Shown here: positions 20,533 to 26,500 of the stretch, piece after piece | Position numbering within the stretch: position 1 is the first letter of the stretch | How the letters are laid out: the number at the start of each line of letters is the position of its first letter | Assembly (NCBI RefSeq): GCF_965641715.1 | Contig: NZ_OZ282453.1 | DNA: 64,000 nt | Origin: Escherichia coli | GTDB taxonomy: Bacteria; Pseudomonadota; Gammaproteobacteria; Enterobacterales; Enterobacteriaceae | Direction: 5' to 3' (one strand) | Made by a program: the position numbers

Positions 20533-23500
20533 TAAGACTGACTTTATCTGATTTAAAAATGCCAGCCTCCGGGCTGGCGTTTTTTATGGTTGAGTTACCA
20601 GCGACCGGACGCGCCGCCACCGCCAGAAGAACCGCCCCCGCCGCTAAATCCGCCGCCACTTGAGCCTCCACCGGAAGAGGATGAAGAAGAACCTTTTCTT
20701 GAAGCTCTATCTTTACTGAGTTTTTTGTATTTGGCGCGTAGCTTTTTATTGACGATAAGCCAAAAAATAACCAGTGGTACGATCGCAAAAGGCGTTAACA
20801 TACCGCAGGCAACGATTAAATTGGTCCATGGTCCTGGCTCGGCAACATAGAGGAATACCATCCCGTAAATGGCGCCAGTGAGAGTGATCCAGGGTAAATT
20901 CGACGGATCGGTAAAAACAATAAAATATGAAAGTACCGCCAGCAATATAATTACAGCAAGCGATAATGGAATAGGGGGATTGATACTGTAATAATCCCCC
21001 CTGTCTTCCGGTAATTCACCATTCAACAGAAGCGCGCCGATATTTTCGCTTGCCAGTGTTAATCCACCCATCAGGTCGTCACTTTTGAAGGCAGGGATCA
21101 ATATATCCCTGATAATCTTCGCCGCTTGCAGGTCGGTTACCACCCCTTCCAGCCCGTAGCCAACCTCAATACGAACAGCATGATCCTCCCTGGCAACCAG
21201 AAGTAAAATACCATCGTTTCTCTGCTTATCTCCCAGTTTCCAGCTATCAAAAACCCTTGTAGCATATTGTTCAATGGAATCGTCTCCGGTGGACGGCACT
21301 ACTAATACAGCGACCTGCGCCCGTGTTTTATGTGTAATATCCTGCAGTTGCTGTGTCAGTGATTGTTGTTCAGACGTGCTTAACGTACCAGTAATATCGG
21401 TCACCTGTTGGCGCAGCTCCGGCACAGCAATTTGCTGGGCAAGCCCGGGAAGGCTCCACAAAGCAAGTAGAATAAAGATTAAGCGCATTACGATCACCAA
21501 CGGCCGGATGAACCGCCGCCTCCTGAAGAACCGCCACCACCGCGGAAAGAATTCCTCGACGAAGAGCGAGAATGAGCATTACGATTCCCCGTTTTCCTGT
21601 TGCTTTTTTCTCCTGACCCCAGCTTAAGATTGCCAGTAAATTTGGCCACAATGATCAGCAGAACGATGCCAGCAATGGTTATTGGGCCGATAAAATGATC
21701 AATTAACCCAATAATTGTTGAGATGAATGCAATATCTTTATTACTGGCGAACACCAGGCACCATCCCACAATAATTATCAGCATCACGACAAACAATGAA
21801 TTTCGTCCTGATTCACGAACCTGCGGAGTCTTCTTTTGTTTTTTCACTTTAGCGTTTTTATTTTTTGGGGCCAGCATCATAGGAAATACGCGGCACAAAT
21901 TAAAAACTACCGCGAGACGCTGCTTGCAGGTTGTTGCTAACAATAAACTAAAACAAACGACCGATACCCGCCGAATGATGACATCGTCCTGAAAGGAGAA
22001 AAACCAGACCATAGGGGTAATCATCGATATCATCCATATGCCACGCCGTGGGCGGCTGGCAAATCGCCAGAGGACAACGATGGCAACGATCATCAGCAGT
22101 GTCCAGGCAAGACATGGCAGCGAACGTTGCGGATTAGCAAACAGATGATTGGCTAAAGCATCCAAAGGGCTAAGGTTCGCTTTGATATGGGTAAACTGTG
22201 CGATGCTTTCAATTCCGCCCGTTAATCCAGCAAAGAGATTGTTTTTTTCGAATTCTGGCTGCATATGGTAACGAACAATTTGCGCAGCTTGTTCCGGCGG
22301 CAACATCTCTTCCAGTCCATGTCCAATCTTCATTGACGCCAGCCCTTCCGGCCATACGACGAGAATTAAGATACCTTCGCCATATCGCTTCTCTCCAACG
22401 GGTTTCCAGTGATATACCCCGTATCTCTGCGAGGCTGCAAGTTTAATGTTTTTGCCCCCTGTGGTCGGCGTAACCAACACGGCCACCTGGAAGTGGTTTT
22501 GCTGCTCGAGAGTCTGTAATTGTTGAGTTAAAGCAGTTTGTTCTTCTGTCGTTAATGTCCCGGTTAAGTCAGTCACTGAAGGCAATCGTTCAGCGAATAC
22601 CTGAAAACCGCATAGCATCAGAAGTAAGAGAAAAATACGCATATCAATTCCTTTTGTTACCAGCGCCCGGAAGCGCCACCGCCACCAGATGAACCGCCAC
22701 CACCGCTGAAATTGTCATTGTTGAATGAAGAGGATGACGATGATGAATAGTGGGAGGAAGAATTGCTTCTTGTATGGCGTGATGGCTGGTTGACATCACG
22801 CATCAAATCCCGAACTTTTTTGCCGAAGGGGGTAAAAGCGATGGCGACAGCCAGGAACGGTGTGGCGAAGCAGAGTAATGTTGCGAGTACTCCCCAGCTT
22901 CCGCTGAAGCCTGCTATAGGTAAAACAAAGGCCAGTACAATAGCTGCGAAGCAAATTACTCCCAGCGTTTTGATATATCCTCTGGCAGAAATAAACGTCA
23001 GTACTATCGCCCAGACTAACAATGCCCACCAACCGCTAAAGGGCAAAGGGTGATCGGTCGGTGTTATCGTTGCTAAATTATTCCCCGTAAGACGACTTTC
23101 AATATCGCTGATCCCCTTTTGTAAACCGCCAGCCAGGTCGCCTTTTTTAAATGCAGGAATAATACTGTTGCGAATAATTTTCCCGGACTGTGCATCCGTA
23201 ATAATACCTTCCAGCCCGTAACCGATTTCAATACGCACGGTATGATCCTGCCAGGCGACTAACAGTAGAACGCCATCATCACGGTCTTTATCACCCGGTT
23301 TCCAGCTATCGAATACCCGCGTTGCGTACTGCTCGATGGTTTCATCGCCTGTTGTATCAACCACTAACACGACCAACTGTGCGTGGTTTTTTTGCGTCAG
23401 GGCTTTAATCTGGTTGGTCAGGGTGTTTACTTCGCTGTTTGTTAATGTGCCGGTTAAGTCATTCACATACTTGGGGGATTCAGGTACTGGAATTTGTGTG

Positions 23501-26500
23501 GCAAACACAGATGAACAGAAGAAAGCCATAAGGAAGATAAAATTTCGCATAGAACTTCCCCGCTTAATGAGCATTAGCATTCTGGCTAAAATCTATTGTT
23601 GGGGCTTTACTTACTGCGGCGACATCATCCGGTAAATAATTTTTCTTTGGCGTGTAATCCATGACCTTTGCGGTTAATACAGCGGGGAATTTGCGGATAG
23701 TGACATTATATTGTTCAATGGCTTTAATATATCTTCCTCGCGCAACGGCAATTCTATTTTCACTTCCTTCGAGCTGTACCATTAAGTTTTGATAGAGCTC
23801 TTGAGCCTTTAACTCAGGGTAACGCTCACTAATTATCGTTAACTGACCGAGAGTGCGAGTCACCTGCGCCTGGGCCTGTTGCCAGGCTTGTAATTTTTGT
23901 GCATCTCCGGGAGCTTGCTGAAGATCGCTGCTGGCGCGATTAGCCTGGCTACGAGCCAATGTTACGGCTTCCAAAACGTCTTTTTCATGGTTGGAATAAC
24001 CTTTAATACTGGCGACAAGATTAGGAATAAGATCGGCGCGACGTTGATATTGATTTAATACCTCAGACCAGGAGGCGTTAACCTGCTCATCATAGGTTTG
24101 AATATCGTTATATCCACAGCCTGATAAATTGAAAATAAATATAATTACGATGAATATCCTGAGCATGTTTAAATCCTTTTTCATTAATTCCTTAAAACAT
24201 AATACGCCGCTTCATTTTATTCTTTATGATCTAATGCACTTTTTGCCTTAAACCTGCCTGTAACAGAATGTTAATAAGACATGATTGTTGCGGCAGGATC
24301 TGCAATAATTAACAATTATCCACTTCACAGAGAATGCTATGCAGTACCCGATTAACGAGATGTTCCAGACCCTGCAAGGTGAGGGTTACTTTACCGGCGT
24401 CCCCGCCATTTTTATTCGTTTACAGGGATGCCCGGTTGGCTGTGCCTGGTGCGACACCAAACACACCTGGGAAAAGCTTGAGGATCGGGAAGTCTCCCTT
24501 TTCAGCATTCTGGCGAAGACCAAAGAGAGTGATAAGTGGGGGGCGGCGAGCAGTGAAGACTTGTTGGCTGTCATTAGTCGCCAGGGATACACCGCGCGGC
24601 ATGTGGTGATTACGGGTGGTGAGCCTTGCATTCATGATTTGCTACCACTGACTGATCTGCTCGAAAAGAACGGTTTTAGCTGCCAGATCGAGACCAGTGG
24701 TACTCATGAGGTACGCTGTACACCGAATACCTGGGTTACCGTATCGCCAAAGCTGAACATGCGCGGCGGCTATGAAGTGTTGTCACAGGCACTGGAGCGA
24801 GCCAACGAAATCAAGCACCCAGTGGGACGCGTACGTGATATTGAAGCACTGGATGAACTTTTGGCGACGCTGACCGATGATAAACCGCGAGTCATTGCAC
24901 TGCAGCCGATTAGCCAAAAGGATGATGCCACACGTTTGTGCATTGAAACCTGCATTGCGCGTAATTGGCGTTTGTCGATGCAAACCCATAAATATTTAAA
25001 TATTGCCTGATTAAACATTTATAAGCGTTATAAATGGGTGGAACCTGTGAAGACTTCTACTCATTTATATTCTTTGTCGTCTCTGAAAAACATCCATTTT
25101 GCCCATCCTGAACTAATCATTATCATTCTCTACAAATTCTGTGGCGTTAATTTTTCGTTGGAGTGAAAATTATTGCGGTAAAGTTTGGTAGATTTTAGTT
25201 TGTATAGAGTTATTTTAAATATTTACCTTTTTAATCAATGGGTTAAGTGCTCTTTAACATAATGGATGTGTTGTTTGTGTGATACTGTAAAGTTGGTAGA
25301 TTGTGACTGGCTTAAAAAATCATTAATTAATAATAGGTTATGTTTAGAGAGTTCCCCGCGCCAGCGGGGATAAACCGGGCGACCGGCAGGCGGCCTATGC
25401 GTTTTTCACGAGTTCCCCGCGCCAGCGGGGATAAACCGGGGCATTAGAATAACTTAAATGGAAAAAGAAAGAGTTCCCCGCGCCAGCGGGGATAAACCGG
25501 CCTTATCTCTGCTTGGATTCTCTGCTGATGTGAGTTCCCCGCGCCAGCGGGGATAAACCGCGGCGCACACGTTGTATTTGTGCTGCCTATGCGAGTTCCC
25601 CGCGCCAGCGGGGATAAACCGCCCACCAGCGCGTTTTTTGCCGGGGCCATAGTGAGTTCCCCGCGCCAGCGGGGATAAACCGGCAATGCTCGTACGCCGT
25701 CTCACTCCGCGTGAGAGTTCCCCGCGCCAGCGGGGATAAACCGCGGGGGCGCGGGGTGTGGACGCATTCACAGCAGAGTTCCCCGCGCCAGCGGGGATAA
25801 ACCGTATATGCAGTGCTGACAGACCGGGGGGCGCAAGAGTTCCCCGCGCCAGCGGGGATAAACCGGCAACGCAGGAACCGCAGGCGGTTCGTCATCTGAG
25901 TTCCCCGCGCCAGCGGGGATAAACCGCTTGCCGCGCCAGGGTATTTTTGTGTGGTCGTGAGTTCCCCGCGCCAGCGGGGATAAACCGTCCGCAACAACTC
26001 AGAGAACCAGACACCAAGCGAGTTCCCCGCGCCAGCGGGGATAAACCGTTTCGCCGCCGGGAAAATTTATATTAACGTTGGAGTTCCCCGCGCCAGCGGG
26101 GATAAACCGCGAAGCACGTCGGGGACCGTAAGGCGTTTGAAGAGTTCCCCGCGCCAGCGGGGATAAACCGCAATCCACGCCGAAGCGCTGGAAATGGAAA
26201 AAGAGTTCCCCGCGCCAGCGGGGATAAACCGTTTACCTGCTCGGTGATATCGTCCTGCAAATCGAGTTCCCCGCGCCAGCGGGGATAAACCGGGTACAAA
26301 AGAGGCCCCATTCTGGCAGGGCTCAAGTTCCCCGCGCCAGCGGGGATAAACCACCATATAACCCATTATCTCTTTCTCAAGTTTTTATATTAGCAGTACT
26401 CGTAATAAGCAACATATCCACGTAACACCTCATGTTCAGAATAGCTCGCCATATATGAGAAGTTCACAATTATCGATACAAAAAATTAAATTTAATCAAA

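Follow-up and report, generated by a model that had tools for sequence, protein, structure and literature searches.

Four genes between eno and queE

In a 64,000-nucleotide (nt) stretch of the Escherichia coli chromosome (RefSeq contig NZ_OZ282453.1; the whole stretch is hereafter the window), the interval between eno and queE holds four consecutive minus-strand open reading frames (ORFs), which we call lemA, TPM1, TPM2 and TPM3: a LemA-family gene followed by three genes for proteins with a TPM domain. Our data indicate that this block is an expanded version of a widespread envelope module and not a new kind of system, and that its practical significance is moderate. The features of the interval, taken from the ORF table of the window and the scans described below, are as follows, with protein lengths in amino acids (aa).

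19237-20535, plus strand: eno, left flank of the four-gene block
20561-20578, both strands: bidirectional intrinsic terminator hairpin GCCAGCC-TCCG-GGCTGGC, with an A run and a T run on its sides
20595-21488, minus strand: TPM3, long-type TPM protein, 297 aa from MRLI (longest ORF 20595-21500)
21494-22642, minus strand: TPM2, divergent long-type TPM protein, 382 aa (ORF table and Pfam TPM)
22657-23550, minus strand: TPM1, long-type TPM protein, 297 aa from MRNF (longest ORF 22657-23580)
23564-24184, minus strand: lemA, gene for a predicted LemA-family lipoprotein, 206 aa from the first ATG (ORF table and Pfam LemA)
24185-24338, no strand assigned: control region between lemA (minus) and queE (plus), homologous to the K-12 yqcG-queE intergenic region
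24339-25010, plus strand: queE, right flank of the four-gene block
20594-20648 (in TPM3), 21496-21548 (in TPM2) and 22656-22710 (in TPM1), minus strand: direct repeat of about 55 nt encoding the Gly-rich C-terminal tail

The ORF table agrees with the original prediction of four minus-strand genes here, with TPM proteins of 297, 382 and 297 aa; with the chosen ATG starts, the gaps lemA/TPM1, TPM1/TPM2 and TPM2/TPM3 are 13, 14 and 5 nt, as had been claimed. For TPM1 and TPM3 these starts are internal ATGs that lie 3' of Shine-Dalgarno-like motifs and open typical signal peptides (MRNF... and MRLI...), and a motif of this kind precedes the start of each of the four genes. Some RefSeq records give TPM3 a GTG start with a 4-nt overlap with the TPM2 stop, so translational coupling is implied with either start. 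For lemA, the ATG at 24166 (MLRIF..., 200 aa) is conserved in E. albertii and Klebsiella and is the start mostly used by RefSeq. The hairpin at 20561-20578 has a 7-bp stem with 6 GC pairs, followed on the minus strand by ATTTTTAAAT, and would serve both eno and the lemA-TPM genes; the same terminator scan gave no convincing terminator inside the block. Tight spacing, translational-coupling geometry and a sole strong terminator at the 3' end support the reading of lemA-TPM1-TPM2-TPM3 as one operon. A search of positions 19000-27000 against Rfam at gathering thresholds returned no match.

All four proteins pass the Pfam hidden Markov models (HMMs) of the families first assigned to them. LemA matches PF04011 over model positions 1-149 of 149 (E=1.2e-48) and is homologous to the solved "lemA protein" PDB 2ETD (E=4e-32), while its score against the NCBIfam MamQ equivalog NF040966, 87.3 bits (E=1e-24), lies below the cutoff of 250. 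Its hydrophobic N-terminus leads into a lipobox, L-S-G-C, whose Cys (residue 23 in the 206-aa numbering, with Gly at +2) is invariant across 18 proteobacterial LemA orthologues. From these features we infer a lipoprotein that is anchored to the membrane at its N-terminus and holds its helical domain outside the cytoplasm. An Asp at +2 is the retention signal in lipoprotein sorting, so that the Gly at this position predicts sorting to the outer membrane and a helical domain in the periplasm.

LemA (23567-24184) also matches PHROG 1383, "virion structural protein" (E=6e-23), which indicates that LemA-like proteins are present in phage genomes as well. We considered a prophage origin for the block and found no evidence for it, as PHROGs match LemA alone and none of the TPM proteins.

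The matches to Pfam TPM_phosphatase (PF04536, DUF477) have E-values of 3.8e-41 for TPM1 (model positions 1-123 of 125), 3e-21 for TPM2 (1-124) and 3.5e-38 for TPM3 (1-124). Hydropathy and sequence inspection agree with the prediction of a signal peptide, a TPM domain and C-terminal transmembrane (TM) helices in each: all three proteins have a signal-peptide-like N-terminus ending VFA or GLA, the TPM domain, hydrophobic helices and the tail GGGGSSGGGG(A/S)SGRW, which together make up the long "YgcG-type" architecture (Gly-rich tail ending G-A/S-S-G-x-W). For TPM1, cleavage is predicted after VFA, the Ser/Gly-rich tail ends GGGGASGRW, and PDB 7TBR, 5ANP (BA41) and 2KW7 are homologues of solved structure (E=3.1e-22 to 2e-19). 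By hydropathy, TPM1 and TPM3 have about three TM helices and TPM2 about five, the latter count drawing also on an AlphaFold2 model of low confidence (mean predicted local distance difference test score 55, below 50 over most of the membrane region) that was used for helix counting only. Basic residues follow helices 1 and 3 in TPM1 and TPM3, and TPM2 has a strongly basic loop at 257-279. With three or five TM helices, the positive-inside rule places the Gly-rich tails of all three proteins in the cytoplasm, and their TPM domains are predicted to be periplasmic.

The term "triplicated", used in the original prediction, holds for the number of TPM genes but not for their uniformity. Identity among the three paralogues is 36-47%, which marks them as old and not as recent copies, and TPM2 is strongly diverged. 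Of the 48 positions with at least 80% conservation among lemA-linked long TPM proteins, TPM1 and TPM3 keep nearly all, whereas TPM2 departs from the consensus at 24, with D119P (Asp119 being 99% conserved), R106S, E108K and G115E among the changes. TPM2 is thus a member of the TPM family by HMM, yet apparently an atypical one. The three copies of the tail-coding repeat are 79-84% identical to one another (self-blastn). Opposite the Gly/Ser-rich tail of TPM3 lies a plus-strand ORF of 86 codons (20590-20850) for a Pro/Glu-rich product; it is the antisense of the tail and is regarded as spurious, and similar ORFs occur opposite the other tails.

Haplotypes, relatives and the lemA-TPM module

We compared positions 20400-24400 of the window by megablast with 5426 complete E. 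coli genomes, scoring the whole block as present at 80% coverage or more. The four-gene block was found in 1102 genomes (20%), O157:H7 included, at 96-99% identity; 3924 (72%) have the K-12 form, with yqcG and ygcG, and 340 have a third form with lemA, one TPM1-like gene and a gene for a 120-aa hypothetical membrane protein. These counts make the block a common accessory haplotype and one of the three main forms of the eno–queE interval. With 1102 genomes the arrangement is not rare, and RefSeq already annotates its genes as a LemA family protein and three TPM domain-containing proteins. The synteny comparison, which finds it in O157:H7 and E. albertii as well, thus sets aside the idea of rare or unannotated content, while the suggestion that it is uncharacterised stands: a literature search found no paper on this arrangement and no functional study of these E. 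coli genes, in keeping with the claim that the function of LemA-TPM modules is unassigned.

As the original prediction stated, K-12 carries a single TPM gene, ygcG, in this slot (b2778 region), together with the 46-aa yqcG. The K-12 and window sequences are homologous in three places: on the eno side with the last 80 nt or so of ygcG (97%), on the queE side with about the first 50 nt of lemA (88%), and weakly in the TPM core (70%). The 46 codons of yqcG (4082-4222 in our K-12 locus, L003, against about 24050-24184 of the window) are read in frame with the lemA signal sequence; both have IIFIF, after which yqcG loses the lipobox and runs into a stop. This in-frame alignment with the 5' end of lemA, along with the common upstream region, marks yqcG as a relic of lemA and not as an independent gene family, and K-12 itself is evidently a decayed form. 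The claim that the locus is expanded relative to K-12 stands as a count of three TPM genes against one but is only part of the picture.

The relation of ygcG to TPM3 is one of allelism. The 3' end of TPM3 is 97% identical to that of ygcG, and YgcG is 41-48% identical to TPM1 and TPM3, values that rule out ygcG as a plain deletion product of the three paralogues; the breakpoints lie in the tail repeat and in lemA codons 1 to about 25. Homology breakpoints against K-12 and against haplotype B both coincide with the tail-coding repeats. In strain H22, lemA, TPM1 and TPM2 are followed by a chimeric gene (L092, 396-1268) whose first 80 or so residues are TPM3-like and whose remainder has 93% DNA identity to K-12 ygcG, with the junction at a conserved IEQYATRVFD motif. 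This chimera indicates that ygcG and TPM3 are alleles of one position that recombine within the gene, with ygcG, judged by these alignments, being an allele that has diverged deeply from TPM3.

Outside E. coli, the four genes recur in E. albertii (L009) with their order unchanged. Klebsiella quasipneumoniae has queE, lemA, one TPM gene and eno; the 296-aa product of the TPM gene matches TPM3 best (45% over 265 aa, membrane part included), so that TPM3 is the positional counterpart of both this single Klebsiella gene and K-12 ygcG. At eno–queE, Klebsiella spallanzanii and a relative carry lemA, a TPM1-like gene and a TPM2 homologue. The products of the latter (L094, 5001-5858; L095, 5001-5813; 270-285 aa) keep the signal peptide, membrane module, basic loop and Gly tail but have no TPM domain. 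Full-length TPM2 orthologues were found in Escherichia only, and an earlier view of TPM2 as Escherichia-restricted was corrected by the K. spallanzanii homologue of its membrane module.

LemA-TPM modules are widespread, as predicted, with more than 600 pattern matches in species-representative genomes. For a closer survey we used our own LemA and TPM HMMs on 80 LemA loci from such genomes plus three further loci (L004, L006 and L008), which leaves 82 comparison loci once E. albertii is set apart. A TPM gene, of the long type, lies directly downstream of lemA on the same strand in 70 of the 82, and the Gly-rich tail is found in 66 of 72 long TPM proteins of other Proteobacteria, as well as in BA41. 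A short TPM protein of about 165 aa that has no signal peptide occurs in 48 of the 82 loci, a count affected by several loci that end at contig edges. Such proteins (e.g., L039, 3092-3595) have no TM segment either, which makes them probably cytoplasmic and hence places them on the side of the Gly-rich tail of the long TPM protein. The usual proteobacterial module consists of lemA, a long TPM gene with a Gly-rich tail and a gene for a short, probably cytoplasmic, TPM protein, so that two TPM genes are already usual.

Three long TPM genes were found, apart from the E. coli block, in E. albertii only, and the window has no short TPM gene, all three of its TPM HMM matches being of the long type. 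The block thus appears to be a paralogue-expanded variant of the widespread module in which the short TPM is missing, a variant found only in Escherichia here. In one Burkholderia sp. (L008, 4882-6615), a type VI secretion system (T6SS) cluster contains a TPM gene and lemA between its tssG and tssJ genes; two other Burkholderiaceae loci (L011 and L015) showed nothing obviously similar, as judged from an unannotated ORF listing.

Selection, gene integrity and allelic divergence

Relative to E. albertii, the ratio of nonsynonymous to synonymous divergence (dN/dS) is 0.027 for lemA, 0.18 for TPM1, 0.26 for TPM2 and 0.14 for TPM3; within TPM2 it is 0.14 in the TPM domain and 0.47 in the more relaxed membrane part. 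Conservation at 96-99% across 1102 genomes, combined with dN/dS of 0.03-0.26, is far beyond chance, and by these measures all four genes are kept by purifying selection. Once annotation artefacts are removed, the four genes are intact in the window and in four of the five other haplotype-A genomes inspected. RefSeq, through the Prokaryotic Genome Annotation Pipeline, flags TPM1 as "incomplete; missing C-terminus" (224 aa, 672 nt) in several records (L089, 2677-3348; L091, 2680-3351; L092, 2665-3336; L002, 3824-4495), but in each of them the TPM1 ORF translates intact at 297-303 aa. Widespread pseudogenisation of TPM1 is thereby ruled out; a real stop, TGA at codon 225, is present only in O157:H7, and the flags look like annotation artefacts, perhaps carried over from the truncated O157 protein.

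Nonsense alleles and gene loss raise the question of whether the three TPM genes are redundant paralogues in decay, produced by neutral duplication in a recombination-prone interval that is heading to the K-12 minimum, in which case the triple arrangement would have no specific function. The 72% of genomes that keep just a lemA relic and one TPM gene would fit such a history, as would the TGA in O157:H7 TPM1, a nonsense mutation in DH10B ygcG, the tail-coding repeats as substrates for deletion and the relaxed membrane part of TPM2 (dN/dS 0.47). Decay is harder to reconcile with the intactness of all four genes in the window and in most haplotype-A genomes inspected, with a gene order kept in E. 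albertii at dN/dS of 0.03-0.26, with the age of the paralogues (36-47% identity) and with the TPM1-like and TPM2-like pair in Klebsiella. We therefore regard it as an unlikely explanation.

Synonymous divergence is distributed unevenly along the operon. Within E. coli haplotype A it is 0.17-0.23 for lemA (23564-24166) versus 0.004-0.08 for the TPM genes (20595-23550), and relative to E. albertii it is 0.8 for lemA versus about 0.4 for the TPM genes. This several-fold excess suggests that lemA and the TPM genes, though in one operon, have had different histories of recombination.

The surrounding 50 kb is an ordinary chromosomal setting, with barA, relA, mazEFG, pyrG and eno on one side and queE, a CRISPR (clustered regularly interspaced short palindromic repeat) array, ygcE to cysJIH, and cas3 on the other, and there is no integrase, transposase or other mobility gene beside the block. 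The window contains type I-E CRISPR arrays at 25351-26353 (17 repeats) and 51844-52420 (10 repeats), both with 61-nt periodicity; the second lies beyond the cas cluster, which in the near-collinear strain PapM-32-1 runs from cas3 to cas5e at about 43150-49800. In K. spallanzanii, an array with type I-E-like repeats (L094, 5858-7468) lies between the TPM2-like gene and eno, whereas the E. coli array is on the other side of queE.

Deep allelic divergence, mosaics and repeated loss would also be accounted for if the locus encoded a polymorphic inner-membrane or periplasmic system shaped by antagonists, such as a receptor or decoy for phage, colicins or contact-dependent inhibition, or an immunity or defence system. 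The proteins encoded by alleles at one site diverge by more than 50%, between flanks that are 97% identical; there are three major haplotypes and natural chimeras (H22); and lemA and the TPM genes of one operon are separated by the several-fold gap in synonymous divergence. CRISPR arrays adjoin the cassette in both E. coli and K. spallanzanii, a TPM and LemA pair sits inside the Burkholderia T6SS cluster, and LemA matches a PHROG "virion structural protein". However, the T6SS context was seen at one locus only, and the nearness of CRISPR arrays is explained by a chromosomal setting that is itself conserved. None of the four proteins matched any defence-system model in PADLOC-DB 2.0 (E<=0.01), the flanks carry no mobility gene, interspecies dN/dS is below 0.3 throughout with no sign of positive selection, and the module is conserved across Proteobacteria as a chromosomal, housekeeping-like operon. 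A history driven by conflict accordingly seems to us quite improbable.

Possible functions and comparison with known systems

The divergent control region offers one indication of when the module may be used. It has 87.7% identity to K-12 across window positions 24132-24400, and in K-12 phosphorylated PhoP binds the 300 bp upstream of queE plus the next 300 bp (PMC4974570). A PhoP-box-like motif, TGTTACAGGCAGGTTTA, lies at 24265-24249 on the minus strand with the direct repeat TGTTAC-N5-GGTTTA (alignment and motif scan). The RefSeq product name of YqcG is "cell envelope stress response protein", and the stress link of YqcG is drawn from that name only. With YqcG being what is left of the LemA signal sequence, the intact operon may be regulated in the same way. 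We propose, from a control region that binds PhoP and drives YqcG in K-12, that the module takes part in an envelope-stress or low-Mg2+ response. The envelope defects of a Flavobacterium mutant were accompanied by up-regulation of both lemA and a TPM gene (PMC13236525).

We tentatively favour, at somewhat less than even confidence, the view that the block encodes a chaperone-like module that responds to stress and, from the periplasmic face, assists inner-membrane complexes, with paralogues that are hetero-oligomeric or client-specific; the argument is one of analogy. In this scheme, the TPM domains would be docking modules, chaperone-like and with weak enzymatic activity or none, that sit on the periplasmic side of the cytoplasmic membrane and help to assemble, stabilise or repair integral membrane complexes. 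LemA, as a membrane-tethered helical bundle related to MamQ, would be their membrane-proximal partner. The three paralogues, which differ mainly in their membrane segments, could form a hetero-oligomer or serve separate client complexes, and TPM2 could be a specialised subunit with an altered ligand surface. Expression would probably start from the divergent queE-lemA control region. Several studies of related proteins are consistent with such a role. Psb32 is bound to a late photosystem II (PSII) assembly intermediate in a cryo-electron microscopy structure (bioRxiv 10.1101/2025.05.08.652833), CcoZ is needed for cbb3 oxidase activity and resembles a mycobacterial supercomplex subunit (PMC8267372), comparative genomics led to a proposed chaperone-like role for TPM proteins in PspA operons (PMC11237479), and formation of the magnetosome membrane requires MamQ, a member of the LemA family (PMC3905215).

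Alternatively, the TPM domains could be metal-dependent periplasmic phosphatases or nucleotidases that act on a phospho-substrate (e.g., a lipid-linked or envelope phosphate ester), the paralogues having different substrate ranges and LemA acting as a regulator or substrate presenter. Pfam names the family TPM_phosphatase, and the closest solved homologues include BA41, with reported ATPase/ADPase activity, and BA42, with reported phosphatase activity. CrLMTP1 and 7TBR are described as having a site for a divalent metal in the loop between strand A and helix I, and TPM1, TPM2 and TPM3 all keep the V-x-D-x4-L motif of this loop, a match at the motif level. On the other hand, there is no pool of ATP in the periplasm, the activities on record are weak, no consensus on function has been reached, and Psb32 and CcoZ work as bound factors or subunits. 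Furthermore, TPM2 has lost half of the conserved positions, Asp119 included, yet its TPM domain has a dN/dS of 0.14, a pattern more in keeping with a binding surface than with a shared catalytic site. Such a catalytic role is, in our judgement, rather unlikely.

The chaperone-like reading has its own difficulties. TPM domains are still without a consensus function according to a December 2025 preprint, and the activities reported for BA41 and BA42 favour an enzyme. The proposed mechanism draws on distant TPM proteins: against the Psb32 equivalog NF047379 (cutoff 160), TPM1 scores 34.4 bits, TPM3 32.1 bits and TPM2 not at all. No client complex can be named for the E. coli TPM proteins, and a fold search with LemA gave generic helical-bundle matches only. 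The PhoP-box-like motif is a weak match; K-12 has it unchanged, E. albertii in degenerate form and Klebsiella not at all, which makes it weak evidence for a PhoP link; a simple sigma-70 scan of 24185-24338 gave no promoter match. Finally, lemA is lost in 72% of E. coli, and together with the nonsense alleles of O157:H7 TPM1 and DH10B ygcG this suggests that the module is dispensable under many conditions.

A more elaborate arrangement would join LemA, sorted to the outer membrane, and the three TPM proteins in one hetero-oligomeric, envelope-spanning device whose invariant cytoplasmic GGGG...ASGRW tails report on conditions in the periplasm or membrane to a partner in the cytoplasm, the role that the short TPM protein would fill in other Proteobacteria. 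It would be a transmembrane sensing or repair machine not recognised before, with membrane segments that are hypervariable in Escherichia and shaped by antagonists, for instance at phage or toxin entry. We consider this arrangement highly improbable.

LemA and TPM proteins rank with the more widespread of the bacterial envelope proteins that lack an assigned function, and the literature found gives none for the bacterial lemA-TPM module. In E. coli, one locus offers a natural near-isogenic series that comprises lemA with three TPM genes, lemA with one, a lemA relic with one, a TPM1 nonsense allele and chimeras. This allelic series is a ready genetic handle on LemA and TPM function in the best model organism. 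Two side results are the reinterpretation of the K-12 small protein YqcG and the exposure of intact TPM1 genes mis-flagged in RefSeq.

Compared with known systems, the TPM proteins of the block resemble in layout Psb32/TLP18.3 of PSII assembly and repair and CcoZ/MSMEG_4692 of respiratory oxidase/bc complexes, which have a TM-anchored TPM domain on the lumenal or periplasmic face of an energy-transducing membrane. Those proteins are bound assembly factors or subunits; they have neither a LemA partner nor a Gly-rich tail and are distant in sequence. MamQ is like LemA in its fold, its N-terminal membrane anchor and the placement of its domain on the non-cytoplasmic side, but it is a TM-helix protein while the E. 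coli protein is a predicted lipoprotein, and E. coli has no magnetosome context.

Other parallels are found among the lemA-linked cassettes. The canonical module shares with the block a lemA gene in first place, then a long TPM protein with a membrane anchor and a ...GGGGASG(R/S/K)W tail. In Bizionia argentinensis, structures have been solved for a long (BA41) and a short (BA42) TPM protein, and TPM1 matches BA41 at E=5e-20. Their genes we take to lie within a lemA operon. The Klebsiella cassettes have no third long TPM gene, though they agree with the block in locus and orientation, and their LemA proteins are 79-84% identical to that of the window. K-12 differs from the block in having no functional lemA and one TPM gene in place of three. 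It nevertheless shares the eno–queE slot, the divergent control region (88%) and the 3' tail and terminator (97%), and its YgcG is like TPM1, TPM2 and TPM3 in its signal peptide, TPM domain, TM helices and GGGGASGRW tail.

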